A model generated the notes under the pieces. The model had not been told where the DNA came from and did not search any database. It worked only from the letters and a program-made list of their open reading frames with translations. From Squalus acanthias (taxonomy: Eukaryota): DNA of 64,000 nucleotides. Positions 23,587 to 60,112 of the stretch are shown here, piece by piece (position 1 is the first letter of the stretch; each line of letters begins with the position of its first letter). The translations under genes were made by a program, and so were the position numbers. The stretch lies in contig CM059448.1 in NCBI GenBank assembly GCA_030390025.1, forward strand, positions 10,106,001 through 10,170,000, read 5' to 3'.

Positions 23587-24328
23587 CCTCTGGGCTTGGG
23601 GCAGCAGGCTGCCCGCCGGCATGTCCACGAAGCCCAGCTCGGCACCCGCTTCTTTCTTTTTCCGATCCAACAGCGAATGCATCTGGAAGACAACTGAGAT
23701 GGTTTTTCTCCCCCCCCCCCCCCCACCTCTTCTGCTTTTATATTCCAACTCCCCCCCTCCCTGCCTCCTCTAAATCTTCACATCAAAAAAGTCCAGCTCA
23801 CGCAGTGAGATCAGTTTATAAAAGAATCTGGCATCAGGCACTTGGATCTTAAAAAAAATATCATCTACAGGTTTCCCTCCCCCCCACCCCCACCCCCTCA
23901 GCCTTCTGTAGGATTAATCCCGATTGGCAAACTAGAAGGCAGAGTGCTGGCTGTCAGCGAGGAAGTGTTGTCTCTGCTACTCTCCCGTCTCTCTCCCCTT
24001 CTAGAGAAAGGGGAGATTTTCACTTTGCAGTCAGTCACAGCTTTCGCTTCTGCATTGCTTGCCGATGCCACTAGGCGCAGACAGGTGCCTGCTCCGTGTG
24101 AACAAATCCAAGGGAAGGGAGGGAGGGGTGGGGTGGAGACACTGAGAGGAAAGAGCAAGAAATCAACAAACGCCCACTGCCTTGGCAAATCTGCTGGGGG
24201 CTTTCACAGTTTGAGCTAAATTAGCTCCCTCAGGTAGCTGAAGTGAGAGATACAATCGCATTCAGTGTGTGTGGTGGGAGGGGCTCCAGATCTGCTCTGC
24301 TTAATGAGTGTGTTCACCAAATAACTAT

Positions 24329-24566
24329 GATGCGGAGATGCCGGTGTTGGACTGGGGTGGACAAAAGTGAGAAGTCGCACAACACCAGGTTATAGTCCAA
24401 CAGTTTTATTTGAAATCACAAGCTTTCGGAGCTGCTGCTCCTTCGTCAGGTGAAGTGAAGGAATACAGTATTCCCTCACTTCACCTGAGAAGGAGCAGCA
24501 GCTCCGAAAGCTTGTGATTTCAAATAAAACTGTTGGACTATAACCTGGTGTTGTGCGACTTCTCAC
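24329..24566. mobile_element. Penelope-derived fold-back element (family B) with hammerhead motifs on both strands
   Basis: Inverted arms about 24367-24458 / 24477-24567; 15-bp TSD tcaccaaataactat (24314-24328, 24563-24577). Confidence 0.85.
24416..24453 (-). ncRNA. Type I hammerhead motif (family B), intact core
   Basis: rc: tcac-CTGACGA-a-ggagc-agca-gctcc-GAAA-gc-tt-gtga. The plus-strand partner at 24481-24517 has a 1-nt core deletion (CTGA-GA). Confidence 0.8.
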
Positions 24567-24614
24567 CAAATAACTATAGGAGGGAGAAAGGAATATGGAA
24601 GGCTAGAAAAGAGA

Positions 24615-25021
24615 AGGCTGAGGGTGAGCTGATAGAGGTCTTTACAATTATGAAGGGGTTCGATAGGGTAGACCTAGAGAAGATGGTTCCATTTGTGAGG
24701 GGGGCGGGGGGGGGGGGGGGTCCAAAACTAGTGTCCATAAATATAAGATAGTCACTAATAAATCCACTAGGGAATTCAGGAGAAACTTCTTTACCCAGAG
24801 AGAGTGGTGAGAATGTGGAACTCGCTACCACAGAGAGTGGTTGAGGCGAATAGCACAGATGCATTTAAGGTAAAGCTAGATAAACACGAGGGAGAAAGGA
24901 ATAGAAGGGTATGCTGATGGCGTTAGATGAAGTAGGGGTGGGCAGAGGCTCGTGTGGAGCATAAACACCGGCATGGACCAGTTGTGCCGAATAGCCTGTC
25001 TCTGTGCTGTAATTTCTATGT
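24615..25021 (+). mobile_element. CR1 3' fragment
   Basis: LIEVFTIMKGFDRVD; 3'UTR homologous to 14130-14513. Confidence 0.85.
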
Positions 25022-25545
25022 GATAAAAGGGCTACTAGCCTAGCGCTCTCAATATGCGAGAGATGGAATAATGCAAATTCCAAACCCCTTTATAGAATCA
25101 GAAATGATAGCACAGAAAGGGCCCATTGGGCCCATTTGCAACTCAAACAACGACTCCAATCCCATATCCTCGTCCTTTCCCCATATCCTTTCATGTTCTT
25201 CCTCTTCAAATACTTATTCAAGTCCCTTTTAAATGTTCTGACCGTCTTTGCCTCATGGCCACTTGTAGCAAATCATTCCTTGCTCTGATAACCCTCTGTG
25301 AAAAAAATCCTAATTTCCCCTGTGTTTCTTTAAACAAAGGAGGAAGATTTCCGATTGACGCCCTGTGTAGCAAAAATACAGAAAAACTGTTTACTATTTG
25401 CTACAGGTAGTGTGCCAAACAAATCGACCCTGTGTGTTTACTATTCAGCATGAGATATGTCAAAACGGGTTATATTTTTAAAATCAGATTAAGTGAGCCT
25501 CCCTCCAAATAAATGAGTCCTAATAACACTGCCCAAATCATATAA

Positions 25546-26075
25546 AAAACAACAGCTTGTATTTATATAGCGCCTTTAACATAATAAAACGTCCCAAGGC
25601 ACTTTACAGGAATACTAAAAGACAAAAAATTTGACATCGAGCCACATAAGGAGAAATTAGGGCAGGTGACCAAAAGCTTGGTTGAAGAGGTAGGTTTTAA
25701 GGAGCGTCTTAAAGGAGGAAAGAGAGGTAGCGAGGCAGAGAGGTTTAGGCAGGGAATTCCAGAGCTTAGGGCCTAGGCAACAGAAGGCACAGCCACCAAT
25801 GGTGGAGCGATTATAATCGGGGATGCTCAAGAGGGCAGAATTAGAGGAGCGCAGATATCTCGGGGGGTTGTGGGGCTGGAGGAGATTATAGAGATAGGGA
25901 GGGGCGAGGCCATGGAGGGATTTGAAAACAAGGATGAGAATTTTGAAATCGAGGTGCTGCTTAACCAGGAGCCAATGTAGGTCAGCGAGCACAGGGGTGA
26001 TGGGCGAACGGGACTTGGTGCGAGTTAGGACACGGGCAGCCGAGTTTTGGGTGACCTCAAGTTTATGTAGGGTAG
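25546..26075 (-). mobile_element. L2 LINE 3' fragment
   Basis: [33 protein letters not shown]...KLWNSLP...FKTLLKTYLF; tail ggcgctatataaatacaagctgttg. Confidence 0.88.
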
Positions 26076-26141
26076 AATAATACATGTAATAAGAGAATGT
26101 TAAGAATGAGATTGAGTCAGCATCAGCTTGGGTTTTGAAAT

Positions 26142-26442
26142 TCATAAAATCATCAAATCTTACAGCACAGAAGGAGGCCATTCGGCCCATCATGCCTGTG
26201 ACAGCTCTTTGAAAGAGCGATCCAATTAGTCCCACAGCCCCAGCTTTTCCCCCATAACCCTGAAAATCAGTCCTCTTCAAGTACATGTCTAATTGCCTTT
26301 TAAAACTTCCTATAAAATCTGATTCCACCACCCTTTCAGTTAGTGCGTTCCGGCTATTAACCACTCTCTGTGTGAAGAAATTTCTCCACATTCCCCCTCT
26401 AGTTCTTTTGCCAATTATTTTAAATCTATGACCTCTGGTTAA
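26142..26442 (-). mobile_element. CR1 3' fragment
   Basis: TRGHRFKIIGKRTRGGMWRNFFTQRVVN plus CR1 3'UTR. Confidence 0.85.
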
Positions 26443-26504
26443 CTCTGTAATAAAAATAGAAAATGTTGGAAATTCACAACAGGCCAATGATCCTCTGAAA
26501 GAGA

Positions 26505-26710
26505 GGTGGCCCTGGAGTAGGAGCGCGCGGTGTCTGCTGGTACGCTGGAGGCCTTCCGCCACCGGTGAGCACCGCAGGGATTGGAGGGCATGTTGGACAC
26601 GGGCGACAACATTATTTAACCTGATAAGCTTCCTTTGCTTTTTATTATTTCATTTTCTAGTAGTTGTGCCCCTCTAAAAAAAAAGGGGGCACTTTTGTTA
26701 GATTTTTTGG
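26505..26710 (+). mobile_element. Tx1-like LINE 3' end
   Basis: LE*ERAVSAGTLEAFRHR*APQG resembles a Tx1 ORF2 C-terminus; T-rich 3'UTR with hairpin gtgcccct-(a)n-gggggcac at 26666-26692. Confidence 0.55.
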
Positions 26711-27971
26711 CTTGATGACCTCCTAATGGGTTTCTAAGAAAAGACATCTGAAAGAGAAAGAGTCAGCCTTTCCTCAGAAGCGAACACTGTATCTCCACTT
26801 TAAAACCAATCAGATTCACTGGCAGGCTCCACTGCATCTTCCTATGCAGGGGTTCCCTGCTGCTCTTGTGCAATTGATGACTTATTTGGTCATCAGTTTT
26901 TATGGACTGTTACTTCGGGCTGCAGGACAAGCACCATTTTGAGCTTCTTCTTCAAAGTGCTTTTCCAGTTACTTTTCTTCACCCATTTTTTTCCCCCATC
27001 CTACTTTAAAACCGAATGAAACCTCTTGCTAGCTCAGATTTCATGACTGCATCTGAGAATTTGATTGATGTTTGGATGCTACAAACGGTTGGGTTATTCC
27101 GGTGTTCAGTTCTCAAGCTCCTGTCGCTGCTTGTTTGACTCACAAAGAACAAGAGGGGGGAAAAGTGTCAAGAATGTTGGCATAAGGGTGCTTAATAGCA
27201 TCAGCTTCGGTCCAAAGGGGGATGTTTGATCCAAGTTTAATATCTTTCTGGCTCAACGCCAATTCAACAATCCTACGTTTAGCTTCTAGAAGTAACAGAA
27301 GTTTGACTTAGAGCCAGAATAGCTCCATGTCGCCAGTTTGTCCATCCAATTACTTGCAGTGTTAACAATACATGATAATGATGATGAAGCTGGTGAGCTA
27401 TATTTCATTTTGTCAAAATGAAGGTCGATTTAAAAAAGCAGCAGGCCTCCATTTGTGATTGCAGTTCCAATGCCAACAATTTGCTGTTTACAGGTATAAC
27501 ATGTGCACTGATTTGTATTCTTTCTGATTAGTCAAATATTGGTTATCACTTGATAAACATACAGTAGTGAGGTCACAATTGTAACTCCTTCATGTATCAA
27601 AGTCAACATGTCAAAATTGAGATGGCACCTTTGCAATTACTCCAGACTGTACATACATACGCTCCATAGTGATGGCAACACTGTAAGATCCATTTTGGGT
27701 TTAGTTGATGATGATAAACCCAAACAGCTTTGCTGTTGGAGCTATGCTGTGAACTCAAACCCTTTGAACAGTTTAACGCCTTGTAATCATTCCCAAAATC
27801 CATTATTCTATTTATAATTTTAAAAAGTGATGAATTAATTTCATGTAGAGTATCACTCGTGCTACTGCAGTAAATCTTCCACTTAAAATGTGGACAGCAG
27901 CTTATAGTGGAATGATTACTTTGGCATTAACTATACTTTTAGCATAGCTTTTTCCAGTTAATTAATTACAG

Positions 27972-28646
27972 TTTTTTTGTTATTCGTTCATGGGATGTGG
28001 GCGTAGCTGGCAAGGCGAGCATTTATTGCTCATCCCTAATTGCCCTTGGGAAGGTGGCGGTGAGCCGCCTTCTTGAACCGCTGCAGTCCGTGTGGTGAAG
28101 GTGCTCCCACAGTGCTGTTAGGTAGAGAGTTCCAGGATTTTGACCCAGCGACGATGAAGGAACGATGATATATTTCCAAGTCAGGACGGTGTGTGACTTG
28201 GAGGGGAACTTGCAGGTGATGGTGTTCCCCTGCGCCTGTTGTCCTTGTCCTTCTAGGTGGTAGAGGTCGCGGGTTTGGGAGGTGCTGCCGAAGAAGCCTT
28301 GGCGAGTTGCTGCAGTGCATCTTGTAGCTGGTACACACTGCAGCCACGGTACGCTGGTGGTGGAGGGAGTGAATGTTTAAGGTGGTGGATGGGGTGCCAA
28401 TCAAGCTGGCTGTTTTGTCCTGGATGGTGTCAAGCTTCTTGAGTGTTGTTGGAGCTGCACTCATCCAGGCAAGTGGAGAGTATTCCATCACATTCCTTAC
28501 TTGTGCCTTGTAGATGGTGGAAAGGCTTTGGGGAGTCAGGAGGTGAGACACTCACCGCAGAATACCCAGCCTCTGACCTGCTCTTGTAGCCACAGTATTT
28601 ATGTGGCTGGTCCAGTTAAGTTTCTGGTCAATGATGACCCCCAGGA
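27972..28646 (-). mobile_element. Poly(A)-tailed CR1/L2-group LINE 3' fragment
   Basis: LLTPQSLSTIYKAQVRNVMEYSPLAW...LHHQRTVAA...WNSLPNSTV; homologous copies at 29826, 39557 and 41265. Confidence 0.85.
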
Positions 28647-28661
28647 TAGTGCTGATGTTTT

Positions 28662-29206
28662 ACATAAGAACATAAGAACATAAGAAATAGGAGCAGGAGT
28701 AGGCCAATTGGCCCCTCGAGCCTGCTCCGCCATTCAATAAGATCATGGCTGATCTGATCCTAACCGCCAATCTACTATCACAGAACCATCTCCTGAACCT
28801 AACAGAATTGGACACACGAAATAGGAGCAGGATCAGGCTACACGGCCCCTGGGCCCGCTGCGCTACCCACAGGGCCATGACCAATCCGAACCTAGACTCA
28901 TGTCCAAATTCCTGCCCGCTCCCCATAACCCTTAATTCCCTTTATTTCTAGGAAACTGTCTATTTCTGTTTTAAATTTATGTAATGATGCAGCTTCTACA
29001 GCTTTTTGGGGCAGCATATTCCATGGACCTACCACCCTCTGAGTGAAGTAGTTCCTTCTCATCTCAGTTTTGAAAGAGCAGCCCCTTATTCTAAGACTAT
29101 GCCCCCTAGTTCTAGTTTCACCCATCATCGGGAACATCCTCCCCGCATCCACCCGATCCAACCCCTTCACAATCTTATATGTTTCAATAAGATCGCCTCT
29201 CATTCT
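28662..29206 (-). mobile_element. CR1 3' fragment with extended or duplicated 3'UTR
   Basis: RMRGDLIETYKIVKGLDRVDAGRMFP; acataaga tandem tail; aaataggagcagga appears twice (about 28685 and 28819). Confidence 0.85.
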
Positions 29207-29825
29207 AACCAATAGCTGAAATGTCAATGAAGCCAACTATTAAGAGTCAGACAGGACTAAAATGAACCAAGCTGCAATTTTGTAGAACTTTTTTTTTGCA
29301 CTAAGCACCTGCACTATAAAAGACATGTGAAGCAGGGCTTATTGCTGCTGCCACACACCGATTCCTTTACTCACATCAATTGGCAGCTGCAGCAACATCC
29401 CGTGTCAGTGGGGTGTTCATTGGTAGAAGCTATAAAGGAATACAGAAGAAGGAAAAGTGAAACCTAAAGAATGAGCCATTGTCTGTGTGGATGAATCTAA
29501 CCAGCAAGGAACCAACCTTTTTTGGTATTGGTAGAATAGCATTGTCTTCCGACTCAGCAAAGTCCACTGAAATGACCTGAGGCACCCTCTTTGATTTCCA
29601 CCATATTTCCTGTAGTTGTGATGATCATTCAACCATGAATTTCTACGCCACTAGATCTCTTCCAACCTCCAAGGGATAATGAAGCAGGTATCTCACAGTC
29701 AACCATTTGCAACTGCATCCAGGTCCATCCCAACATATTTATGTTTTTTTGCTAAAAGCTAGGAGCAGTAATGACTAAGAAACACAGCTGGTATCCCTGG
29801 TTTCTAAGGGTTCTTGGTGTTACTC

Positions 29826-30080
29826 ATGGTACCATCACCTGCAAGTTCCCCTCCAAGTCACACACCATCCTGACTTGGAAATATATCGTCGTTCCTTCAT
29901 CGTCGCTGGGTCAATATCCTGGAACTCCCTCCCTAACAGCACTGTGGGAGTACCTTCACCACACGAACTGCAGCGGTTCAAGAAGGCGGCTCACCACCAC
30001 CTTCTCAAGGGCAATTAGGGATGGGCAATAAATGCTGGCCTTACCAGTGACGCCCACATCCCAGGAAAGAATAAAAAAAA
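29826..30080 (+). mobile_element. 3' fragment of the poly(A)-tailed LINE family
   Basis: Homologous to rc of 27972-28225; ends gaataaaaaaaa. Confidence 0.85.
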
Positions 30081-31052
30081 CACATGGGGATCTTCACCTA
30101 GCCCAAGTACTTCTGCCTCCATGAGTAGGAAAGGGTTCTTTTCATTGAATATGCAGGTACTTTTTAACATGAGAGATGTCATAACTTGATCATGTGCTAA
30201 CTCAGCAGGATCCATGCATGTCTTATTCAGTCCATCTCAATCTGCTTTACCCAGAATGTTTCAGGGAGATGGTAGGATACATGGATGGCCTCTGGGTATG
30301 GCACAGGGTCATGGCTGATGGTTCCTTTCCAAAATCCACAATCTCCTGCAGAAACAGTGATGGTCACTAAGCCACACACTCACTGATTGAAAGAATACTT
30401 GGAAAGCCCAAAGTATGTTTTCATTACCTGGACCAACTGCAAGGTGCAATATGTCTCAGGGATGGAGGGTTGGTTCAATGGTGAGATTGACTTCCTGCTT
30501 TGTAACTCTTGGCTTTTGTTTAGTACAGTTCTAATGGTAGTATTACCACATGGTAGCTAATAATGTCAAGGGCCTAGTGTCTGGCTAGTAAGTATGTTTA
30601 AAGAAATTATAGAAATTGTGTTTCCACTAGGTGATTTAATTTGTGTCATCAGCAAATTAACTTGTAACAAAAGTGGAACCTGGCATCTTAATAGTTGATA
30701 GTAACTACTTGTAATTGTCAAAATACCTCTAACAGCAGCAAACAGGATGATTCTGCTACAGTTTATTCATTTATGTAATAATTTAAGTAACAGCCTGATA
30801 TAGAAGGTACTTCATTATAAATCAATGCATTTTTTTCACTATATAGAGATAAGAGATACACAAAAGTGTTTGCAGGGTAGTGATTCCAAGAACTGGTGGT
30901 ACAGTTGGATAGCACTATTTTTTTTTTGTCTTTGGGATCTAAATTGAATTCAACCCAAACTCATTGCATGAGTGTCCCCTGGAGTGAGAACTCCAGCACT
31001 TTGTGCCACGGTGCTGCCTGGTATATGGCAAACTGTAGCACAGAGCAATCAG

Positions 31053-31077
31053 TGAGTCACCATTAGAGGGCAGCACT
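31053..31077 (+). promoter_or_regulatory. Candidate CTCF site with adjacent AP-1 motif
   Basis: tgagtca overlapping ccattagagggcagca (CTCF core consensus CCASYAGRKGGCRS, one mismatch). Confidence 0.35.
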
Positions 31078-31844
31078 GTGCAGAGGTGTAGTATCCACCA
31101 GACAGCAAGGGGGATGTAATTGAAAATTCATATTGTTCACAGAAACCATAAATGTCCGTTCTATTTTGATAAATGTTGGTGCTGTAGCTTAATAATCATT
31201 TAAGCCTCTCGAAATTGATATTTTAAGGCAATACCTCCTTTGTCAGAGTTGAACGTTTATCCACAATTGTCAGTAGAAATGCAATTTTTTTACATATTAA
31301 AGTAATCCTGCACAGTTTCCTCTTAGAGGTAGTCATCTAGAAACTGTTAGTGACTTGGGGAGGGGTTGATGGTTATGGCACTGTTGCTAAAGAGATAAGG
31401 GTGGCAGAAGTGCACTTGCCTGGTCAAGTGCTGAAGTTGTACACTTTAAAACATTCTCATGCAAAAAGATATAAAATATGAAATTTCCACTAGTCTTTCT
31501 AACATTTTCTCTGTTTCTTCTAATTTAAAGTTGGGGCTAATGTAAAATCAGCACAGGAGATCCCTCTTACAGCATTAGTGATTCATAATTTAATATGTTA
31601 AAAAAAATTCTAAAGTCATTTTTAAAATGTGTATATTAAACCCCCCCCCCAAAATATTTGTATACTTTTACAAGATAAATATCTTTCATATGCAAAGTCA
31701 TTTTCACAATTAATAAAATGAATATATATTGGTAAATATTAAATACTTTGAAACATTTTGGAAATAATGTAGAGTTCTTAAATATTAAGGGTATTGAAAT
31801 ATATAATTCAATAATAAAACACACAGCAATAGTATTAACTCAGT

Positions 31845-32418
31845 CATCATCCGCTAAAACCATGTTTCATGCCTTTGTCACCTCCAGAAGTGATTATTCC
31901 AATGCTCTCCTAGCTAGTCTCCCATCCTACATGCTCTATAAACTTCAACTCATCCAAAATTCTGCTGCCTGTATCCTATACCGCACCAAAATCCTCTCAC
32001 CCCCTCACTCCTGTCCTCACCCATAATGGCTTCTGGTCCCTCAGCACTTCAAATTGAAAATCCTTTCATTCCTCGCCCCTTTAGCTCTGTCACCTCCTCC
32101 AGCCCCAGAGCCACCCCTATATTCTCTGTTCTGCTGACTGGCTCTCCCTCTTGTGCATTTTCTCCATCTTCGCCCCACCATTGGTGCCCGTGCCTTCAGC
32201 CACCTAGGTCCCTCTCTCTGGGATTCACTTCCTAAACCACTCAGCCATTCCACTTTCCTCTCCTCCTGTAAGACCCTTCTTAAAATCCAACTCTCTGACC
32301 AAGCTTTTAGTCACCTCTCCTAATCTCTTCAGCTTTGACTCAGCGTATGCCTCTATGAAGCAACTTGGGATGTTTTCTACATTAAAGGTATTGTGAAAAT
32401 GCAAGTTGTTGTTGTTGA
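31845..32418 (+). mobile_element. L2 LINE 3' fragment (degenerate)
   Basis: [19 protein letters not shown]...KLQLIQNSAA; ttg tandem tail. Confidence 0.8.
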
Positions 32419-32659
32419 ATGATACTGAAGTTTGCTGATTGACATGAATCTTGTCATTCATGTGGAAATGACTTATGAAATAATACTGGGCGGTCTGCTG
32501 GTGGCGCTGTCCAGGGAGAGTATAACTACTTGGGCATGGGCCCAGCTTGCTCAGGACATTCTTTAACAGGAACTAGAAAAGGACACAACTAGATCTCCAT
32601 GTTGAAAAACAGTTGATTAAAGCTTTGTTTAACGCTTAGACCAAGTGCCTAGTAGTTTT

Positions 32660-33512
32660 CTTACATCACTGATGATCCCAAATGTGTGGATATGGAAAAC
32701 TATGAGGAAGAATGCAAGGGATTTATACAGGGTAGTTGAGTGGGCAGATAGGTGACAGTTACAGTTCAATGCAGAGAAATGTAAAGTAGTACATTTTGGG
32801 AAAAGATGAAATATACCATAAATGGTAATACTCTTTTCAGAGTAGAGGAACAGAGTAATGTAGGGGAGCAGATCTTTAAAGGTACAGCTTGAAAAAGACA
32901 TGAAAAGCATTGAATATAAAAGTAAACAACTGATGTTGAAATTATACTAGACATTGGTTAGGCTACTGGAATATTCCTTGCAGTTATACATACCTTATTA
33001 TAGGAAGGATATCAGAGCCATGGAATGGGTACAGTAAAGGGTCACTAGAATGATACCAGCAGCAAAAGGTTCTGGTTGTGAAGAAAGGGTCAAAAAATTG
33101 GGGCTTTTTTCCCCCAGGATCAGAGAAGGTTAAGGGGGGTCCAGCAGAGGCTTTTCAAAATTATAAAACGTTTTAAAAGGATAAATAGTGAAAGATTGTT
33201 TCCACTGGCTGGTGAATCACTCACAAGTGGGCACAGACTGGCTTATCACTTGAAGAATGAATGGGGAAGTATAAAAACGTTTTTTTCCCACACAGAATAA
33301 TTAGAATTGGAATGTGTTACCGTAAATGGCTATTGAGGCAGAGAGTACAGTATCGTTTAAAAAGGAATTGAATAAGTATTTGAAAAGACTATAAAAGGAT
33401 ACAAGGAAAGGGCTGGCAAATGGGAATACAGTAGACAGCGCCAGCTGAAAAGCTAGCACAGGCAGACGGGCCAAATAGGCTCCTTCTGTGCTGTAACATC
33501 TATGATTCCATG
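32660..33512 (+). mobile_element. Old degenerate CR1 fragment
   Basis: FNAEKCKVVHFG remnant and CR1 3'UTR ending ctatgattccatg. Confidence 0.7.
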
Positions 33513-33584
33513 CTAGTTGACTATTTAGTAAAAAATGAGAAGTCGCACAATACCAGGTTATAATCCAACAGATTTATTTAAAAT

Positions 33585-33620
33585 TACAAGCTTTCGGAGC
33601 TGTTGCCCCTTCGTCAGATA
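33585..33620 (-). ncRNA. Type I hammerhead motif, intact core
   Basis: rc: tat-CTGACGA-a-ggggc-aaca-gctcc-GAAA-gc-tt-gta. Confidence 0.72.
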
Positions 33621-33894
33621 GAGTTACAATGAGGGAATCTACAATATTACACAGTATATAAACACCGAAAGCAATTTGTCTGCAGAGATACAATCTTTCA
33701 GGGAGGCCTTACATCAAAGACACACCAGAGCACAGCCAAGACAATGAGATGGGTGACAGGGGGTCCAACGTGTCAAATCCTGCTGTCTGCAGTTGAGCTT
33801 TTGTAAGGCCTCCCTGAAAGATTGTATCTCTGCAGACAAATTGCTTTCGGTGTTTATATACTGTGTAATATTGTAGATTCCCTCATTGTAACTC

Positions 33895-33930
33895 TACCTG
33901 ACGAAGGGGCAACAGCTCCGAAAGCTTGTA
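33895..33930 (+). ncRNA. Type I hammerhead motif, intact core
   Basis: tac-CTGACGA-a-ggggc-aaca-gctcc-GAAA-gc-tt-gta. Confidence 0.78.
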
Positions 33931-34427
33931 ATTTTAAATAAATCTGTTGGACTATAACCTGGTGTTGTGCGACTTCTCATTTTTGTCCACCCCAGTCCAA
34001 CACCGGCATCTCCGCATCATGACGACTATTTAGTAGGAAGCACAGGAAATGATTGGGAAGGTTGACAATTCTTACAGCTTCTTTGCTTAATTTAATTGTA
34101 AATATGATCCTTTGTGGTGTTTAGAGATGCTTTGAACACTCTTTAAATAAGATTTGACATTGCACTGGTGTTGTACTCCATACAATGTGATTGAGACTGC
34201 CTTCTCCAAGGGATCTCACAACCCCTCTCCAAAGTTAGGGACCTGAATCTTGAGTTATACTACAACTTTAACATCACATCAATTCCAAGGTTGCAGTATA
34301 AATGCACCTTATATTTTGCAGCAAAAACACTATCTGTGCCTATGTATGTATATCTGTATCTAAATACTAATTTGAATAGACAAATTTCCCTTTTTCATAT
34401 TTTGAATGTACAAGCATATCTTGCTAA

Positions 34428-34703
34428 TGAATCATACAGCACACAAGGAGCCTATTCAGTCCATCATGCCTGTGCCGGCTCTTTGAAAGAGCTATCCGAT
34501 TAGTCCCACTCCCCCTGCTCTTTCCCCATGGCCCTGCAAATTTCCCCCCTTCAAGTATTTATCCAATTCCCTTTTGAAAGTTACTATTGAATCTGCTTCC
34601 ACCACCCTTTCAGGTAGTGCATTCCAGATCACAACAACTCACTGTGTAAAAAATGTTTTCCTCATGTCGCCTCTGGCTCTATTGCCAATTACCTTAAATC
34701 TGA
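34428..34703 (-). mobile_element. CR1 3' fragment
   Basis: Homologous to 26142-26442 and to rc of 1950-2220. Confidence 0.85.
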
Positions 34704-38040: not shown

Positions 38041-38077
38041 ATCCAGAGAACATTAAATTGATGATAAGTTCTTTCTT

Positions 38078-40420: not shown

Positions 40421-40479
40421 GCTATGTGACTGCTTCACATTTGATCTTTTGTTATTTATTTATATATATATTTTTTTGT

Positions 40480-40760
40480 ATATATCTCTTGCTTTGTATA
40501 ATCATTCCTTTTGTCATTTATTCACTGCTGCCTTCCACCCTATCACAGACCTACCCTTTTGTTCTTTCCTCCCCATCCCGCTTTCCCTGCCTCTGCACTT
40601 GCTTAAAACCTGTCATATCTCTAACTTTTTCCAGTTTTGACAAAAGGTCATCAACCTGAAACGTTAACTCTGTTTCTCTCTCCACAGAGTGCGCCCGAGT
40701 GTTTCCAGCATTTTCTGTTTTTATTTCAGATTTCCAGCATCTGCAGTATTTTGCTTTTGT
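40480..40760 (+). mobile_element. Penelope pseudo-LTR fragment (family A) with decayed hammerhead
   Basis: Homologous to 860-1130; core at 40633-40669 mutated to TTGACAA while stems and GAAACGTT remain. Confidence 0.8.
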
Positions 40761-47927: not shown

Positions 47928-48142
47928 AGAAAGAAAGTCTTGCATTTATATAGCGCCTTTAACGACCACCGGACGTCCCAAAGCGCTTTACAACCAATTA
48001 AGTACTTTTGGAGTGTAGTCACTGTTGTAATGTGGGAAACGCGGCAGCCAATTTGCGCACAGCAAGCTCCCACAAACAGCAGTGTGATAATGACCAGATA
48101 ATCTCTTTTTATTGTGTTGATTGAGGGATAAATATTGGTCCG
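47928..48142 (-). mobile_element. Deu-SINE 3' half
   Basis: rc homologous to 60360-60562. Confidence 0.8.
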
Positions 48143-49444: not shown

Positions 49445-49803
49445 ACATCAAATTACATAATCTACAGCATACAAACTGGCCATTCGGCCCAATTGGTCTA
49501 TGCTGGCGTTTATGCTCCACACGAGCCTCCTCCCACCCCTCTTGATCTAACCCTATCAGCATATCCTTCTATTCCTGTCTCCCTCATGTGCTTATCTAGC
49601 TTCCCCTTAAATGCATCCATGCTATTTGCCTCAACTACTCCTTGTGGTGGCGAGTACCACATTCTTCCCACTTTTTGGGTGAAGAAGTTTCTTCTGAATT
49701 CCCTATTAGATTTATCGATGACTGTCTTATATTTAGGGCCCCTAGTTTTTGGGGAAACAAGTGGCAACGTCTCTACATCTACCCTATCAAACCCTTTCAT
49801 CAT
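49445..49803 (-). mobile_element. CR1 3' fragment
   Basis: MKGFDRVD...REFRRNFFTQKVGRMW; same family as 12522-14513. Confidence 0.85.
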
Positions 49804-49923
49804 CTAGACGTGCTGGGTAGGGGAGAACTGTGTTTTATGGCCCGATGATTTTTAAACAATCTTTTGGTTCTTTGCTTTCCTTTATTCCTGTGGTAACACG
49901 GTGCTCTGACTGTGGGTGGTGAG

Positions 49924-50072
49924 CAATGTTCCCGTTAAGCTGGGCGGCCGCGCAGCGCTCTGGAGGTGCCGCGCACCAGCTCTTATATGACAAAAACCGC
50001 ATGAACATTTAAATGGGCGCACAGCCAGTTAAAGGGCCCGGGAACCGGGAAAAAAAATAAGAGGGAACATTG
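49924..50072. mobile_element. Short TIR element (hAT-like MITE)
   Basis: TIRs caatgttccc / gggaacattg, CpG-rich interior; TSD only partly conserved. Confidence 0.55.
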
Positions 50073-50883
50073 GTGATAAAGAGATCCATGAGCCCTGCAG
50101 CTACAACTTATTAGACCAGGAAATAAATTCCCGAATTTAATTTTGGAAGCGACGTACTGGTAGTATTTTTTTTGGACTAGTTTTTGTTTCATTGAAACAG
50201 AAGGGGGTGTAAGGTATTACAAATGTTGCACCCTGTCTCTCAAATTCTGACTATTTTTGTGTTGATTTGAAAGAATGGGTACAAGTTGCATTGTATTGTT
50301 GACATTTTATACAATTTGCTAAATGACTGAACCTGCCTCGTCTGTGAAACTGGTCTGACAGCTCGTGGTTTACACTCTGAAGTATTACCTGTCAGATTGT
50401 ATTTTCTGGTTTTGACATTTACCACAGGGTGTAACATATCATTATGGATATATGGTTATGAATGTTGCAGATGTAGAAGTGTGTAATTACCTGCAGTGCT
50501 AAGTAGGATAATTGTGTGTGCAGAAGATGACAATTATGTAAAAACAGTGATATTTTTACAATGAATTGGTTTCCTTCCTTCCCTTTCTCCACCTGGCAGG
50601 GCTTGAACTTGAGTATGTAACTAGGCACAGAAGTAGCAGTTTACAAAGCGTGCTGGTGTTCAGTTTTTTTAAAAAAGAAGTGCATTAGTCTGGTAAAATA
50701 GAAACTAAAATTACCTTTATACATGCTTGATTTAGAAAAAAATTGTAGTTCTGCAGGAAAGTACAGTGCTACAAGTAGTAGTATGATTGCATCTATTGGT
50801 CTGCCAAACCAGTAGTACTTTCACTGTCACTGGTCCATCCCTCAAATTACTGGTCCTGATCTGGGAGACCAGTGTTCACTTAG

Positions 50884-51045
50884 AGTCAGGCAGCATCTAT
50901 GGAGAGAGAGAAGCAGAGTTAACGTTTCAGGTTGATGACCTTTAGTCAGAACCTGAAACGTTAACTCTGTTTTTCTCTCTCCACAGATGCTGCCTGACCT
51001 GTTGAGTATTTCCAGCATCCGCAGTATTTTGCTTTTGTTTTCATT
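50884..51045. mobile_element. Penelope family A fold-back fragment
   Basis: Inverted arms about 50885-50931 / 50952-50998. The minus-strand hammerhead at 50917-50952 has core CTGACTA (G-to-T change); the plus arm starts just before GAAACGTT. Confidence 0.78.
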
Positions 51046-51049
51046 TAGA

Positions 51050-51270
51050 GTCATACCGTTGCGGCAGTTTGTGAACTTCTGTAATTGACGTGGAAAATGG
51101 ATTAGGTGACGGTCATTAAGCCAATTGACACATGCAAAGATTATGCACAAAATTCCTGATTGCAATGTTTAACTGCGCATGTGCGGTCGCCAGAAGTTGC
51201 TGTCCGATTTACTCTTTAATCACGTTGAGCGCTGATAGCCTCGCCGTTATTCTTACTGCAAAATCCGGGC
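51050..51270. mobile_element. Harbinger-type non-autonomous element, terminal fragment
   Basis: Ends ...gcaaaatccgggcc; reverse-complement homology to 15441-15570. Confidence 0.6.
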
Positions 51271-52999
51271 CAATGAGACATTTCTACATGGCAGGCAGGA
51301 CAGGCATAAAAAGAATCGCACCCAGTGATCATCTTCAACTCTGCCTCTCCACCATGCTATTTTCTAGTTTAAATTTGCAAACATCTGTTGTTGTAGCCTT
51401 GCTCTTTTTAAATACTATAATTTTATACTCTAATGTGCATATGCTGACTGGTTTGATGAATTGAGTAAGGAGTGTAAATTTATTGTCAGTTATATGTAGG
51501 ACAAGGAATAATGAATTACAAATGTGCAAGTCAGTTCTGATAAAACTTTGAAGCTTGATTTTTGTTTTTTAAGAACATTAGTCGAACTGTGATCATCAAT
51601 TATGGCTGTTTATTGTAATTTATAGTGCATATTCCTTTTAACACTTGTTTTAGTGTTGTACCTGAGCATGGTGGGTGTGCTGGACTTAGATACTGTAAGT
51701 GAAATGGTAACAAAAATAATAAATCGGACTGATGGCATCAAGTGACCAATATTATGGGTTTATTTATCTGCCCATCAGTTGGTTTACTGGGAAACAAGCT
51801 ATACAGTATAGAATAATAGTGAGTGCTGCTATCATCTAAATGAGGGATTCCAATGACATCCTAAGCAGCAATGGTCAAATACTGTCTTATGAATATGATT
51901 TGAACCCTAGGGTTAAGATTGTAATTTTTTTTTTAAACGGTGACCTCTTTCCCCCTCCTGACCCCTCAATTTTCTCTCTCTTTTTCCTTGCCTCCATTCT
52001 GTGCCAGACATCTGTATCTGGGAGGGCAAGGAGCTTTTTGTCAGGCCACTGCCGATGCTGTTCTCTTGCTGTCCATGAGGAGGCACACCAATATTTTCCC
52101 ATCTTTTCTCCCCACCCCCTCAGTTTTCTGCAGCTTCAGGATTTCACCTTCACAAAGCTCAAAGCTGCATGGCTGAGATCAGAACCATGCATTCCTCCAC
52201 TCCGGCTTTGCTCGATTAGATCACAATCACTCAATTCCATCTGTTAAGTGCTGTGCACTTTCCAATTATAATGTATTGAGAACGGATATCGGTACTCAGC
52301 AATGGGCCATTGGTCCACTTTTCTTTCTGCATAATGCTTTAAAGCTATCAAGTTTGTTCCCATTACCGTTCCTGTAACTTTATTTTTCTGTTGTATTATC
52401 TTCTCCCTTAAAATCTTTCTCTGCTGTTCACCATCTGCAGCTTAGAGGATGCAACTTTATGCCCAGCGATGACATTCTCATAAATGCACAGACTCGAGCA
52501 AAAATTAATTGGTACATATAAAGATGTCAGGAATATGCTGCATGCAAGTCTTATGGTGGATGTTCTTGGCCATTCTCCTTTTATGGAGGTAACATCTATT
52601 TGCACCATTGACCAGGTTCAGTCACTTTAGGAAATTTGAGTAAACGTTCTCCATTTGTGCCTCAGGGAAAAATATCTGTCAGATGTGAAAATTATTAATC
52701 TTTTTCCATACAGTGCATTAAAACAACAGCTAGCATTCTGCCCAGTGTAAATAACCCAATATTAGATTGGGACCTCAAATTTGAGATCTTTTCCCTCGCT
52801 GGTGTAGTAGATTATTGTAATATCTTTCCCTGTTCTGCTGAATATACACGTATCTGAAGAAATGTAGTTAAATCCCCAGATTGTTCATTTAAATTGAATT
52901 AAGGCAGCTAGCAAGGTGAACTTTTATGATGCTAACTACAGACGCACTAAACCTCCTGACTGGGCATTCGATTAATGAATATATTTGTGTTTTCTACAG

Positions 53000-53050
53000 G
53001 TAAAGCCAAAGGAGAAAAAGAGAAACTCTCAGAGCCACAAACCAATAAAT
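53000..53050 (+). CDS. AKAP10: AKAP10 coding exon 2 (51 nt)
   Basis: tttctacAG acceptor, GTAAGT donor, phase 1-1. Joined to exon 1 it gives MSFFRRRGKAKGEKEKLSEPQTNK, which aligns to mammalian MSFFRRKVKGKEQEKTSDVKSIK. Confidence 0.8.
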
Positions 53051-54152
53051 GTAAGTTTAAAAAAAAAAAAAATTAAATGTAATGCGGGGCCGGGGTGGCA
53101 TGTGGGCGTGTTGGTGAGAACTGGAGCAATGCTCAGTTCACCACAAAAGGAGGCTGTCTCAATAACTCCGGAACATCAAAGTTGCTCGAGTTTCATTGCT
53201 TGCCCCATGATTACAGCGGACATTTCGAATGAGGTTGCTGTGTCAGGGGGTTTTAATGTTCAGTAATACTGGGATTATTCGTCCATTAGTTTCTTGAATC
53301 ATTCTCTTCCAACACGTGACGTCTTGCTTTAGCAGATACCGCATGCACAGCTCGGTGGTGTTGAATGATGACACTTCCTGTCTCAATTGGAATTTAGACA
53401 GCGTTCTCATTATCGAGAATAAGGAGGTGTGGTCCCCTAGTTTTAAGTAAACTCTTTGAAATGTGCATTTAGTATCCATACCTCTTCTGCTACTTGTAAA
53501 AGCAAAACACTGGGGACATTTGGCAAGAGTCGTGTAACTGAAATATCATGTTGTAACGGCTGATCTTGTCATTGCTGATGGCAAGTTGGAGGATAGGCAG
53601 TGGGGTTGTTTAATTTGGCCTTTACTTTTAAGACCATCAAGTGTACTCCCCGTGCAGAAGTAATATAAATCGGCGCATCCTGATGTCAGCCGAAGTCTTA
53701 ATTATTGTTGCTGATGGAAGTTGACATTCTTCAGCTGTAATTTGTTATTTTATGAATTATTTTAGATGCAAATGTCATGGAGTTTTTTCGGGGTCATCTG
53801 GGGGCTAATTGCTCCCAGAGACATCCAGAGGTCAATTAGATGGCCTATTGATGCAGGATAAGCTTGTAAGGAGATTGGAAATATTGGCTTTTAAAAAAAA
53901 AAAATATCCTTTCTAAGTGGTATAGAATTTTTTCCCTCCTGTTTCTTGTGTTGTTTGTGCCTGTGTCTTTTTTTTGCAGATTCTTATCTTTTGTTTTTGT
54001 GCTGACTGTGCAACAGTGAGCACTTTAACTTGGTGATTGTGGGTGGTGGTGGGAAGCGAAAGAGAAAAAAGGGGATCTGTAACTCAACATGGAGAATAAT
54101 TTTTTTTAGCATTATTCACTGGCCTTGAAGAAACTGTAACCGCATTTTATAT

Positions 54153-54972
54153 TACATAAGAAATAGGAGCGGGAGTAGGCCATACGTCCCCTCGAACCTG
54201 CTCCGCCACTCAATAATATCATGGCTGTACTTCGACATCAACTCCACTTTCCCACCATATCCACGTATTCCTTGATTCCCTTAGTGCCCAAAAACCTATT
54301 GATCTCAGTCCTGAATATACTCATCAACTGAACATCCACCCCCCTCGGGTAGAGAGTTCCAAAGATTCACAACCCTCTGAGTGGAGAAATTCCTCCTCAT
54401 CTCAGTCCTAAATGGCCGTCCCCTTATCCTGAGACTATGACCCCTAGTTCCAAACTCTCCAGCCAGTGGGAAACAGCCTCTCAACATCTACCCTGTCAAG
54501 CCTTCTAAGAATGTTATACATTTCAATGAGATCACCTCTCGTTCTTCTAAACTCCAGAGAGAGTATAGGCCCATTCTACTCAATCTTTCCTCATAGGACA
54601 ACCTTCTCATCCCAGCAATCAATCTAGTGAACCTTTGTTGCATGCCTCCAAGGCAAGTATATCCTTCCTTAGGTAAGGAGACCAAAACTGTGCACAGTAC
54701 TGCAGGTGTGGTCTCTCCAAAGCCCTATATAATTGCAGCAAGACTTCCTTACTCTTTTTTTTTTATACTCCGACCCCCTTGCAATAAAGGCTAACATACC
54801 ATTTGCTTTCCCAATTGCTTGCTATACCTGCATGTTAACTTTCTGTGATTTGTATACAAGGACCCTCAAATTCCCTTTGTATACCAACATTTACCTGTCT
54901 CTCACCTTTTAAAAAATATTCTGCTTTTCCATTCTTCTTACCAAAGTGGATAATTTTACACTTCCCCACATA
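54153..54972 (-). mobile_element. CR1 3' fragment
   Basis: VGKCKIIHFGKKN...QQRFTRLIAGM...TRGHSLRIRGRPFRTEMRRNF; CR1 tail. Confidence 0.87.
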
Positions 54973-56334
54973 TTTCAGTAGCTGTTCTAACGTACAGAGA
55001 GAGACGTCTGAGTACATTATAGGGCAGTGAATATCAAGTGGACACCAAGCAGGAGGCCGAAAGAGTATAGGAAAAAAGCTAAAGCACTGTCAAAATGGAG
55101 GGTCTTCAGGAGGTTTTTGGAGGCTGGGGCATAGTGGCTGAAGGAGCAGATGCCAATGAAGGCGGGGGAATGAGAAGTGGGTCAGTTTTGGAGGAGATGA
55201 TAGTATGTAGTTGAAGATCGCCAAGGTAGGGAGGGCAAAGCAGTAGAGGAATTTGAAGGTGAGGATGAAGATATTTGATTCTCTGGATATAATGCAGTGA
55301 AGCTCAATATAATGTACAGGTTGTGCTAGAAATATACAGTAGAAAATGATTGTGTGTTGGAGCAGTAAGTGGCTGAGAATCTAGGCCAGTGTTACTTTGT
55401 CGTTTTTATTAAATTCTTTGCCTGCATAAAAATCCCAGTCTGTTTTTTATTACAAGTATTCATGATTTCAAGTGCCTCAATCTTGGGAATTCATGAATGT
55501 AAGTAGTCTAAAAATATTTGATTTTTATTCGACAATAATTTAGGTTTCTGTTGTGACACCCTGTCAGCTAACAAACATTTAGCTTTTTGTGAGGGACGCT
55601 GAGCTCGGATCACAGGAGTAGGCCATTCAGCCCCTCGAGCCTGTCCCGCTCTCAAAAAATGACCCAGAACTTGTCGATCGCTTTCCGAATTGCCCAACCT
55701 CGACCTACCTGCAATAAAATCGAACCCATTGGAAGATATTTCCGTCTACTCCAAAGAAGAACATATCTTTTCTGTAGCTGTGGAGTTGGTGAGAGGGTGG
55801 GGAGGGAAGGCGAAGAGCCATTCAACTACCACCTTGGCACCTTGAAAATGTTTAAATAGAAAATCATTTAGGGTTGTCGAGAGGTTTTTCACTTTTACTA
55901 ACTGTTTTTCTGTCTGTCATTTTACTTATTTTCAATTGATTGCTTCACAGTGTGTTGAAAAAGGATCAACTCATTTACTGCATGTACTTCTTGAAGGACT
56001 TTTTAAAAACGTAATTGGCTTGAGTGTTTGCTTTCTGATAATATTATTTGAATTGTAATTTAGGATCGTCAGACCTAGACTAGCTGGAATGTTTGAGCCA
56101 TGTTTGAGGTCAATAACAAAGAAAAAAAGACTTGCATTTACATGGCATATTATCATGTTCCTCAAACATCGGAGCTTCACACAATTCAATTTTTTTCGTG
56201 CAGTGTTATTGTTATGTTGGCAAAAGTGCAAGACAAATGCATTTCCAACAATAGCATTTTTGCTAAGCGGCAACTTACCAAAGGCCTCCTGTAATCTACA
56301 AGGTTTTAAAACTTGGTGTCACCCAGTGACAATT

Positions 56335-57270
56335 TCCTGATATCTCCCACCATTCTTTGAATCTGCCCTTGTCAAAGTCATAAATGTTGTCTTTTTGACT
56401 CTGGTTTGTTCATCCTCCTTGAACTTACAGCTGCCTTGGATGCCATTGATCATTGTATCCTCCTCTAACATTTCTCAATGGTCCACCTTTGCGGCACTGC
56501 TTTCTCTCCTGGTTCCAATCATACCTGTCCCAAAAACATGTATCCATATATCCTCAGACTGTGCGGTTACCGCTGATGTCCCTCAGGGCTTCATCCTTAG
56601 TCCTCTCTTCATCCTTTTCATTATGCATCTCCTCAGTGACATTACCTAGAAGCATAGGATCAGGTTCAATATTTATGCTCTGCTTTACCTTTCCAGCTCT
56701 TTTGATTCTAAGGCAGTTGTTCACCACTCCAACTCTCCATTCGACGTTGTTGAAATTTCCTCTAGCGTAATATTGGAAAAACTGACGTCATTGTTTTTGG
56801 TTCCTGTAAACTTCTAAACACCTCTGCCCCTCACTGCATCAGCGTTCCCGCCTGCCATCTCCGGTTCCTTTCAGTGGTGTAGCGCCTCTGCATGCTATTT
56901 GATATTGAGCTGAGTTTGTTTCTCTGCATATGTTCCTGTCGCCAAGACTGCCACCTTCTATCTTCGTAACATTGCATGTCTCGGTCCCTACCTCTCCTGC
57001 AGAGACTCGAATTCAGAACTTTTTTTTACTTCAAGGCTTTATTTTTGAAAAGCTGTCCTAGCTGGTTCCACCACTTTCACCCATCATAAGTTGCAACTCA
57101 TCTGGAATGGCAGTGCTTACCTGCTCAGTCCCTGCACTTCCATTACAATGGTCCAGGCCAGGTTTCATTGGCTCCCTGCGGCCCATGAATCAATTTCAAC
57201 GTCCTTATCCTTCACATGCCTCCGTGGTCTTGCCTTATCCTATTTCAGTGACCTGCTTCAGCTTTATGTC
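56335..57270 (+). mobile_element. Old degenerate L2 RT fragment
   Basis: LSWFQSYLS, VPQGFILSPLF and FHWLP remnants. Confidence 0.65.
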
Positions 57271-58314
57271 TCTGGAAGTGATTCTGGAATTTACATTCAC
57301 ATGTTTCAGTCATAGCGTAGAGGCTAATGCTTAAAAAGCTTGAATCAAATATAGCCTGTAATCCACAAATAAAGATGTTCTGTTTGCAGTGAGATTTGCC
57401 AGCGTTTGCTTGTGTTCTCATGGTGTTAGGCTGCTTACTTTTTAATGATTTCCTCAACCAACTCCTATCAACATTTTGTAGGTAGTTGTTGTTGTTTGTC
57501 ATTTTGTTTTTAGATATTCAGGTGTATGTTTAAAATATGTAATATTTATTACACACATTTAAATGTATTATCTAAAAGCTTTGGCAATATACCTGTGACT
57601 TTTCCTTGAAATAGAATAATTATAAACCTAAATCATTTTAATGCCTTTAATGCTTTCAATAAAGTTTGACCAAAGTGAATGCAAAGGGGATAGCGGGGCT
57701 GTTACTATTTGGAGCATTGTGCTCTGCTCCACATTTGATTTGACTTAATTTTTTTCTTTGGTGATGGTGGTGTGAATGACTCACTCCTTTGAGAGAAAAG
57801 ATTATATCTTAACATCAAAAGATTTTTTTTAAAGCGACTTGAAAATAGAGTAGCAACAGTTCTCTCACATTAGGAGCTTAAAATAGAATTCCGGACTCTG
57901 AACTAGATTTTCAAGTGTTGTTGGCTTCCAGATGAGCTGCTTGATAGATTTGTTCTCGCCCCACTGTTGTATAACTGCCGGCCACTGAGCAGCATTATTC
58001 ATAGTGTTGTCAGTAGAATTTCAGTAAAGTGCAGCGATGAAGAGTGTCATTTTTATGCAGCTCTATTGTAGCCATTTCCATCCATTATTATTATAATAGT
58101 GTAATGGTGGATATGTGAAACTTTCAGACTTGCCTACTTGAACTGGAAAGGTCACCTGGCTTATACAGAATAAGTAAAGGTTTTGTCCTTCAGAACTTGA
58201 GTTGCGTCTGTAGAGAGTATTTTGAGATGCATAACACGAGGGTGAAGTGCTAATGATTGCAGATCTATCACTGGTGGTGATAATGAGCAGTTTGAGGTGA
58301 TAAATTAAGGTTAA

Positions 58315-58865
58315 AGAAAGATCTTGCATTTCTATAGCAACTGTCATGTTATCAGGACATCCCAAAGCACTTCACAGCTAATAAATTGCTTTTGAAGTGC
58401 AGTCACTGTGATGTAGACAAATGTGGCAGACAATTTGCACATAAGAGTCCCATAAACAGCAAATTAGATAACCGACCAGTTACCTTGTTCTGTTGGTATT
58501 GGTTGATGGATAACTGTTGGCCAGAACAGTGGGGAAACTCATTTGTTCTTAAAGTCGTGCCAGGGAATGTAGTGCAGGGCTTCAATTTCACACTAATACA
58601 AAAAGAAAAGACTGCAGATGCTGGAAATCTGAAATAAAAACAGAAAATGCTGGAGATACTCAGCAGGTCAGGCAGCATCTGTGAAGAGAGAAACAGAGTT
58701 AACGTTTCAGGTCGATGACCTTTCACTTCAATTTCACATCTCATCTGAAAGACATCACCTCTGACAATGGCGCACTCCCGCTGTACAGCACTAAAATGTC
58801 AGCCTAGATTGTATGCTCCAGTCTTGGAATGGGGCTTAAACTCTCAACCTTCTAACCCAGGCAAA
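58315..58865 (-). mobile_element. Deu-SINE with nested Penelope fragment
   Basis: SINE tail at 58315-58400 and head near 58830-58860; interrupted at 58593-58725. Confidence 0.7.
58593..58725 (-). mobile_element. Penelope family A fragment truncated inside the hammerhead
   Basis: rc homologous to 1004-1130; 13-bp TSD cttcaatttcaca (58580-58592, 58726-58738). Confidence 0.8.
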
Positions 58866-59209
58866 AAGCGTATCTCAAATGAAAGCATATCGGCTTCAAT
58901 GTGATTTCCCCTAGCTCCTTCACGTCCAACAATCCTACAATAGTGTGTTACTCGTAAGTGTAATTCATTGTTGTAACATATGCAAAGGCAGCTGCCATTT
59001 GCATACAGCAAGGTCCCACGAACAGCAATGAGATAAATAACCGGATGATGTTGGTTAAGGGATATTTATGGTGGCTGGGACACCAGAAGAGCTCCCTGGG
59101 ATCTTGTATGTCTGCTTCAACAGGTGGATGTCTCATTTCAAAGACAGCACCTTTGATATTGCAGCACTCTCCCAGTACTAAACTGAAGTGTCAGCCTAGA
59201 TTATGTGTG

Positions 59210-59400
59210 ATGTGGAGATGCCGGTGTTGGACTGGGGTGGACAAATGTGAGAAGTCGCACAACACCAGGTTATAGTCCAACAGCTTTATTTGAAATCACA
59301 AGCTTTCGGAGCGCTGCTCCTTCGTCAGGTGAAGTCACCTGACGAAGGAGCAGCGCTCCAAAAGCTTGTGATTTCAAATAAAGCTGTTGGACTATAACCT
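59210..59400. mobile_element. Penelope-derived fold-back element (family B), minimal version
   Basis: Arms about 59267-59332 / 59335-59400 with a 2-nt loop; 15-bp TSD cctagattatgtgtg (59195-59209, 59398-59412). Confidence 0.87.
59296..59332 (-). ncRNA. Type I hammerhead motif, intact core
   Basis: rc: tcac-CTGACGA-a-ggagc-agc-gctcc-GAAA-gc-tt-gtga. The plus partner at 59335-59371 has GAAA changed to AAAA. Confidence 0.8.
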
Positions 59401-60112
59401 AGATTATGTGTGGGATTGAAACCCACAACCCTCTGATTCAGAGGTGAAAATACTACCACTGAGCCAAGGCTGACACTCTATGAAGTAGAAATTCTAACGG
59501 CTGTGAAGAACTAGCTGGAAGATAGGGAATTATAGATATGTTTTTTAATTTAAGGGATAACTAAAAATATTACTATAAGAAAATCACCTCTTAAAGCACT
59601 TAAAAACAATCTGTTGAATAAATTCCAAATTCTGGTTTCCAAATAATCGGCCTAGGGTGGTTTGCACAAGATGCTGTACTGCTGGGAACTTTTTAAACTT
59701 TGTTTCACACTGGCCTGAGTTGTAGTGCAGCAGGTGTGAAGCTGAAATGGTGAGACAACCTTCTGGAGTTGGTTCCTGACTCTTGCTTTTTAGTCCGCTT
59801 CAAGTGACTTAATGCCTCTAACACAGCACCATTTGTATTGATGTGAAAGTGAAACTGCTCCACGTCAATGTGAGCGTCATTATATAAATTGCTTGCAGGT
59901 GATGAAAGAGAAGACAGGAGGGCCATTAAAAAGACTATATTTAGTTCGTGAGAACTTCAACACATGTTGCTAAAGTTACAATTAAACATCAAAGAAAGGA
60001 GTTCTCGATATTCCTCAAGTATTTTAAATGCTGAAAATGTATTTTAATGGCTTATTTTGTCTGAAGCCAAAATTATTTCCCCATAAATGTTGATTCCTGT
60101 TCCTATTAGAAG

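Follow-up and report, generated by a model that had tools for sequence, protein, structure and literature searches.

Short inverted insertions of an abundant Penelope-like element in the Squalus acanthias genome: probable twin priming and a possible trace of hammerhead cleavage

Background

A stretch of 64,000 nucleotides of the Squalus acanthias genome (GCA_030390025.1, contig CM059448.1, positions 10,106,001 to 10,170,000 of the forward strand; hereafter the window, numbered from its first letter) contains three short insertions related to Penelope-like elements (PLEs), copies 1, 2 and 3, each with two inverted arms and a hammerhead-like motif on both strands. Do they form a non-autonomous family that is mobilized as a whole, or are they by-products of a larger element, and how did they acquire their palindromic shape? 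The origin of inverted tailed PLE insertions, as well as hammerhead cutting in vivo, are questions posed in earlier work (PMC8557442, PMC4209133, PMC11167929).

In this report, we show that an abundant autonomous PLE with an endonuclease (EN+) gave rise to the three window copies as inverted insertions truncated at the 5' side, and that they are not members of a separate family. Such short copies, or stubs, are likely to be dead on arrival and were likely twin-primed, that is, primed from both nicks of the target site. An initial annotation of the window, made from the sequence, had called them 'non-autonomous ribozyme-bearing retroelements or stereotyped insertion products'; the second wording was right.

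Results

The parent element

Genome-wide counts were made by sequence-pattern search. A 37-nt tail sequence is matched exactly at 21,336 places in the 3.7-Gb genome, against 0 for the reversed control, and a 31-nt anchor in the arm at 60,865. Our core sample comprised 103 copies, namely the first 100 tail matches on one contig (C1) and the three window copies. Their sizes form an unbroken series that reaches full length and into the open reading frame (ORF), the short size being the mode. The ORF of the element was matched by tblastn at 17 of 98 loci, two of them belonging to a more distant family, and was without matches in the window stubs. A Penelope-like family more distantly related to it has left ORF fragments (29-39% identical) at L055:3637-4035 and L063:1-1729.

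The full-length unit (locus L108) consists of a short pseudo-long terminal repeat (pLTR), the tail, an ATG directly after the tail, the ORF, a 3' untranslated region (UTR), a pLTR and a tail. Its ORF has 848 open codons followed by a frameshift near the end, and L108 forms with L038 a single insertion of about 6 kb that includes an inverted near-full copy. The parent protein matches the Pfam reverse transcriptase (RT) domain RVT_1 above the cut-off (E 2e-9) and shows DKG and YIDD motifs; GIY-YIG was matched below the cut-off (L035, E 8.5e-4), and the pattern VVY...C-x3-C...YIG is visible in the L108 translation. No solved structure matched the protein. A single ORF running from RT to a C-terminal GIY-YIG (with the sub-threshold match just given), partially tandem pLTRs, an inverted truncated copy, a tail at one end, DKG and a hammerhead in the pLTR are together what characterizes an EN+ PLE. 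The same terminal sequence thus sits on the window copies and on an autonomous RT + GIY-YIG element, which the initial annotation had proposed searching for, and the Penelope-like origin that it had suggested is borne out.

Between RT and EN, at residue 753, the protein carries a CX4CxxC linker. Linkers of the form CX2-5CxxC are assigned to Neptune/Nematis and described as absent from Penelope/Poseidon (PMC8557442), and by this feature the parent would be of Neptune (or Nematis) type; assignment to the Penelope/Poseidon clade was ruled out by the presence of the linker. Among the 120 homologues listed, the nearest named proteins are from sharks (92% identical in Heptranchias, 85% in Scyliorhinus), in a list that bears no clade names.

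Two fixed outer ends and a variable junction

A tail-less inverted arm is present in 86 of the 103 copies, and 80 of these 86 have a target-site duplication (TSD) when one mismatch is allowed. Exact TSDs of at least 10 nt, found in 73 copies, are 12 nt long in 45 and 13 nt in 13, and the AT content of the 12-nt ones is 75%. The TSD length of 12-15 bp initially annotated describes the three window copies (15, 12 and 13-14 nt), while the mode of the family is 12 nt.

Positions are given as d, counted in nucleotides upstream of the final base of the tail along the sense strand of the element. The tailed outer end lies 0-8 nt past the end of the tail, in the ORF start, and the tail-less outer end falls mostly at d 33-39. 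The two outer ends are thus fixed, about 37 nt apart, and the inner junction is variable. At both ends the overlap between target and element exceeds that of shuffled pairings (0.76 versus 0.33 nt, and 1.64 versus 0.69 nt). This outer-end pattern matches the two RT start sites and the extension of both strands reported in vitro for an Anolis element (PMC11167929).

Twin priming would proceed as follows. The element protein, perhaps as a dimer, would cut both target strands 12 nt apart; one target 3' end would serve as primer for cDNA next to the start codon, where the tail ends, and the other about 35-39 nt upstream. Both cDNAs would extend toward the RNA 5' end and usually fall off where transcription begins, a short way upstream of the hammerhead, which would give stubs of 200-240 bp; in roughly 1% of arms, fall-off would occur at the ribozyme cut. 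The cDNA ends would then be joined through microhomology or short filler, and the two templates would sometimes be different RNA molecules.

Two further features of these sites were seen. At L108:233-335, a 9-bp stem pairs the tail with the pLTR and encloses the second RT start region, a candidate setter of the two start sites. Different copies also occur at the same site of other repeats, with near-identical flanks, through either recurrent targeting or co-duplication; the sets are L003, L004/L032, L008, L011/L033 and L027; L013/L035, L020, L047 and L050; and L012/L034 and L017/L039.

Short stubs and the predicted RNA start

Arm ends pile up at most 13 nt upstream of the hammerhead core, where 33 of 103 tailed and 32 of 77 tail-less arms end; the next 14 nt hold 3 and 4 ends, respectively. 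In reference copies inspected by eye, an initiator-like A is found 7 nt before the core, and a TATA-like run 27-32 nt before this A. The same TATA/initiator motifs are described in rotifer pLTRs (PMC3846280), and the Drosophila promoter is described as TATA-less (PMC2377424). We infer that the pile-up may reflect run-off at the RNA 5' end. Of the short ends, 38 of 49 in subfamilies with a 6-nt longer spacer lie at least 9 nt upstream of the core, versus 8 of 28 in the short-spacer group (Fisher p 3.5e-5), in a tally made by hand from which 5 and 7 rows with an unfit reference were dropped, in which palindromic copies were counted twice and for which a GTAC palindrome is a confounder. In one copy (L152), a stub is inserted in the TATA-like run of another copy, and stem II and the upstream sequence differ between the two.

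The hammerhead and the arm ends at its predicted cut

The motif and its stem pairing agree with the minimal type I hammerhead that had been annotated in the pLTR. Over 23 variants, 97.1% of cells in stems I and II are paired, compared with at most 45% in slid controls. Two-sided (compensatory) changes occur at two pairs, one in each stem, and each possibly represents a single event. The core GAAA is present in 230 of 235 parsed arms, a figure to be read with the fact that the parser itself demands a near-intact core. Stem II variation, initially described as small, is so among the window copies; the family varies more, including a C-G to U-A change.

Searches with Rfam, which the initial annotation had put forward as a check, gave no match to hammerhead models, the matches being hairpin-like miRNA models under the gathering score. 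Curated Rfam hammerhead models expect a stem III. The ribozyme call thus rests on motif and pair counts; a generic motif scan requiring stem II directly after the core missed the window motifs.

Folding predictions return the expected structure for isolated motifs. Whole-stub transcripts fold to plain hairpins in which the ribozyme is buried, with a stem II probability of 0.0 in all six versus 0.52 in the parent 5' RNA, and cofolding a pair of motifs produced swaps of stem II or duplexes of stems III/I but no clear dimer ribozyme. Because stem II does not form in the modelled stub transcripts, the opposed ribozymes on which the initial annotation had laid weight are probably inert, and the relevant one would be that of the parent transcript. 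A subfamily with the core change U4 to C (14 of 235 parsed arms; L008, L035, L041, L043, L050) has a rebuilt stem II and offers a natural control for the peak described below.

Cleavage at the predicted site would yield an RNA starting at d 90. Genome-wide, arms leaving the reference after a given base numbered 50 at d87, 75 at d89, 206 at d90, 125 at d91, 75 at d92 and 93 at d93. After correction for the share of junctions that each pattern can catch, d90 has 571-735 arms, about 1% of the 60,865, versus 226-295 at the five neighbours; this excess is 2-3-fold, with a Poisson p of about 4e-24 provided that the capture model holds. In the symmetric class (270 loci), the first 50 inspected by eye comprised 17 full palindromes, 3 longer cases and 1 unclear one, and the deeper arm otherwise ended at 87 (1), 88 (2), 89 (6), 90 (11), 91-92 (6) or 93 (3). 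Ribozyme cleavage has, in our judgement, a somewhat better than even chance of being the cause, which makes the peak a possible trace of cutting in vivo.

The competing explanation, to which we give only slightly less than an even chance, is that the peak arises from microhomology, the cDNA end at this point matching the usual start of the partner arm owing to the self-complementarity of stem I, or that hairpin tips are trimmed at the 6-bp palindrome next to it. Among 30 inspected d90 loci, 7 have a 4-nt match to the partner arm and 3 are small insertions rather than junctions; the next base is mostly T, and there is no spill-over at position 91. The second subfamily, moreover, replicates the mode weakly: its 39 loci include 19 palindromes, with 6 ends at the cut, 4 one base short (d89) and 5 one or two beyond (d91-92). 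However, microhomology is used about equally at the control positions (20 loci each inspected at d92 and d93), and an excess of about 2-fold remains once those classes are dropped; tip trimming should peak at 93-96 rather than at 90; and in 4 of the 27 true junctions both arms end at the cut or one base short of it.

One cDNA or two

The principal alternative to twin priming is that one cDNA or antisense RNA folds back and primes itself at palindromes, the asymmetry of the tail arising upon hairpin resolution or integration. It was proposed for PLEs in PMC3846280 and PMC8557442, and the initial annotation adopted a single-cDNA version of it. Arm depth argues against this as a general route. 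Of 77 simple two-arm copies, 31 have a tail-less arm that reaches more than 10 nt deeper than the tailed one, 13 show the opposite, and 33 have arms of similar depth (three tailed arms, L034, L039 and L071, were measured only to 900 nt, as these copies served as their own reference). A tail-primed cDNA that folds back is unable to yield a deeper tail-less arm, and this route is therefore excluded for those copies, among them window copy 2 (272 versus 217 nt).

Arm sequences also differ. The sample was enlarged to 186 by adding to the 103 copies those newly found with a second-subfamily pattern. Of the 186, 74 have a parsable ribozyme on both arms; stem II is identical on the two in 47, represents two different common variants in 12, and shows a rare difference in 15. 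Arms differ at two or more places in 20 of the 74. Mixed arms require either two templates or later gene conversion, and those with different common haplotypes, some of them differing at 3-7 places (L141, L147, L149, L194), are not derivable from one molecule.

Several observations nonetheless weigh against twin priming with run-off. The 47 of 74 copies with identical stem II far exceed the 10% expected from random pairing, arm depths are coupled (Spearman 0.58), and 11 of 30 deep copies have depths within 15% of each other (permutation mean 1.9); both identity and coupling are also predicted by snap-back synthesis. Many junctions lie on palindromes, as in the two symmetric classes given above (17/50 and 19/39), and a snap-back or template switch may often account for the inner join. 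Later gene conversion could be the source of mixed arms. As to run-off, the start site is a prediction from motifs, and its shift between subfamilies is about 3 nt for a spacer difference of 6 nt, with the same GTAC palindrome as a confounder. Finally, the samples were drawn from contig C1 and are biased to young copies. Since arms are usually identical and depths coupled, the two cDNAs of a twin-primed insertion would mostly come from one source or one RNA. Given the depth asymmetry and the mixed arms, fold-back appears unlikely as the explanation of the stubs.

A copied unit or a transposon end

The remaining possibilities concern what moves. A non-autonomous hairpin element, retrozyme- or SINE-like, would be transcribed, self-cleave and be copied as a unit. 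High copy number, the modal short size and a conserved core with compensatory changes would all fit, and pLTR-derived retrozymes exist in vertebrates (10.64898/2026.07.22.740005). Such a unit should have an inherited centre; however, 46 short copies have 40 distinct junctions, the recurring ones being GTAC palindromes, and no other internal junction shared among dispersed copies was found in these 46. The size series continues into the ORF, and the ribozyme is buried in whole-stub RNA. The identification as retrozymes was rejected as well, the arms being inverted instead of arranged as tandem direct repeats. The family moving as a unit, as first annotated, is thus already largely refuted, and we regard it as very improbable. 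That the arms are the terminal inverted repeats of a DNA transposon (a miniature inverted-repeat element) is refuted despite their short, inverted, non-coding form with TSDs, as the tail is on one side, the centre varies and the sequence is continuous with an RT ORF.

The three window copies

All three copies were located where the initial annotation had placed them, and each has TSDs and inverted arms, with a tail of 38 nt on one side; a blastn search with the three found no fourth copy in the window. In copy 1, the left TSD (24314..24328, 15 nt exact) is followed by the tailed arm on the minus strand, which is the element sense (24329..24467), comprising the tail (24329-24366), the pLTR and an intact hammerhead (24416-24453), and ending 18 nt upstream of the hammerhead core. 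The plus-strand tail-less arm (24468..24566), whose hammerhead (24481-24517) lacks one core base, ends in the second RT start region; the first bases of the right TSD (24563..24577) are common to TSD and element end.

Copy 2 lies between TSDs of 12 nt (33519..33530 and 34024..34035). Its minus-strand tail-less arm (33531..33802; 272 nt) extends into the element 3' UTR and has a hammerhead at 33584-33621, and its plus-strand tailed arm (33802..34023) consists of 217 nt and, beyond them, the initial 5 nt of the ORF, with an intact hammerhead at 33894-33931. An 88-nt 'spacer' had been annotated here; it is element 3' UTR, and the two arms meet.

In copy 3, between TSDs of 13-14 nt (59195..59208 and 59398..59411), the minus-strand tailed arm (59209..59335; intact hammerhead at 59296-59332) has the modal end, at the predicted initiator A 7 nt before the core. 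The plus-strand tail-less arm (59335..59400) has a hammerhead at 59335-59371 with GAAA changed to AAAA, and does not reach the usual second start region, stopping about 20 nt before it. A hammerhead motif on each strand of every copy, as annotated, is thus found with an intact core in four of six cases and a damaged one in two (the plus strands of copies 1 and 3). In stem I, the motif on the minus strand of copy 2 carries a wobble.

A second repeat family in the window, with a hammerhead-like core and a palindromic stem III stub, occurs at 50881-51003, near 1000-1070 (+), at 40640-40710 (+) and at 58660-58730 (-). Its copy at 50881-51003 is a fold-back too, and the family is likely another Penelope-like one of the same habit. 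A 32-bp minisatellite is present at about 10320-12400 (56 overlapping 300-nt registers).

Discussion

As an element, this PLE is ordinary. The layout that had been thought under-described, an inverted pLTR with a one-sided tail and a TSD, is already published (PMC3846280, PMC8557442), as is an explanation of the tail (PMC11167929); the value lies in the base-level mechanistic record, a dataset of more than 60,000 arms with ends mappable at single-base resolution. Three predictions follow from these counts: a stagger of 12 nt, arms that are mixed through the use of two RNAs, and 5' ends of RNA located both at the initiator and at the cut. The most complete reading would take tens of thousands of such stubs as a record, left in a vertebrate germ line, of a dimeric enzyme, two RNAs sometimes of different sources, nicks 12 bp apart, run-off at a promoter-defined start and, in about 1% of arms, at the hammerhead cut. 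We offer it tentatively, and would not quite expect every part of it to hold. If true, it would be the first in vivo trace of cleavage by a metazoan minimal PLE hammerhead, with the cut RNA still serving as a template. Our literature search, made on listings and outside subscription journals, Repbase and supplements, found no report that PLEs show twin priming or mixed arms, or that their genomic ends fall at the cut.

In L1 twin priming, both target ends prime, and an inverted truncated insert joined by microhomology results between TSDs; there, annealing of the second primer takes place at an internal position that varies, and the resulting segments are non-overlapping. Unlike L1, for which twin priming is known (PMC2837659), the shark element would start both cDNAs at fixed sites near one end, giving a palindrome with a tail.

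Among PLEs, Pen2/Pen2a of Adineta vaga (PMC3846280; scheme in PMC8557442) resembles the shark element in its inverted 5'-truncated arm, its one-end tail of 30-40 nt and its TSD, as well as in TATA/initiator-like motifs in the pLTR and a partial tandem in full-length copies (PMC3846280). In contrast, the shark copies are mostly stubs of 200-240 bp made of two pLTR ends, their TSD is 12 bp versus the 8-10 bp reported for the rotifer elements, and their mixed arms point to two templates where self-priming was proposed for the rotifer (PMC3846280).

Poseidon_Ac (PAc) of Anolis provides the biochemical counterpart: in vitro, its protein nicks and extends both strands, and two start sites bracket the tail (PMC11167929). 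Both elements have AT-rich targets and a hammerhead upstream of the tail. They differ in the ORF start, which lies inside the ribozyme in PAc and directly after the tail in the shark element, and in the CX4CxxC linker of the shark protein, which Penelope/Poseidon proteins lack. No RNA ends at the cut were seen for PAc (PMC11167929), versus the 2-3-fold peak of genomic ends in the shark.

The shark ribozyme shares with the minimal type I hammerheads of metazoan PLEs the CUGANGA core, an extra base before stem II, the G10.1-C11.1 pair, a short stem I and a palindromic stem III stub (PMC4209133). That study had already recorded opposed motifs at spacings of 100-700 bp, and the activity it describes is weak and confined to dimers, with no in vivo evidence reported (PMC4209133). 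Non-LTR retrozymes (10.64898/2026.07.22.740005) are likewise non-coding, derived from pLTRs and equipped with a type I hammerhead; they are, however, tandem direct repeats able to form dimer ribozymes, whereas the shark stubs are inverted and made anew at each insertion.

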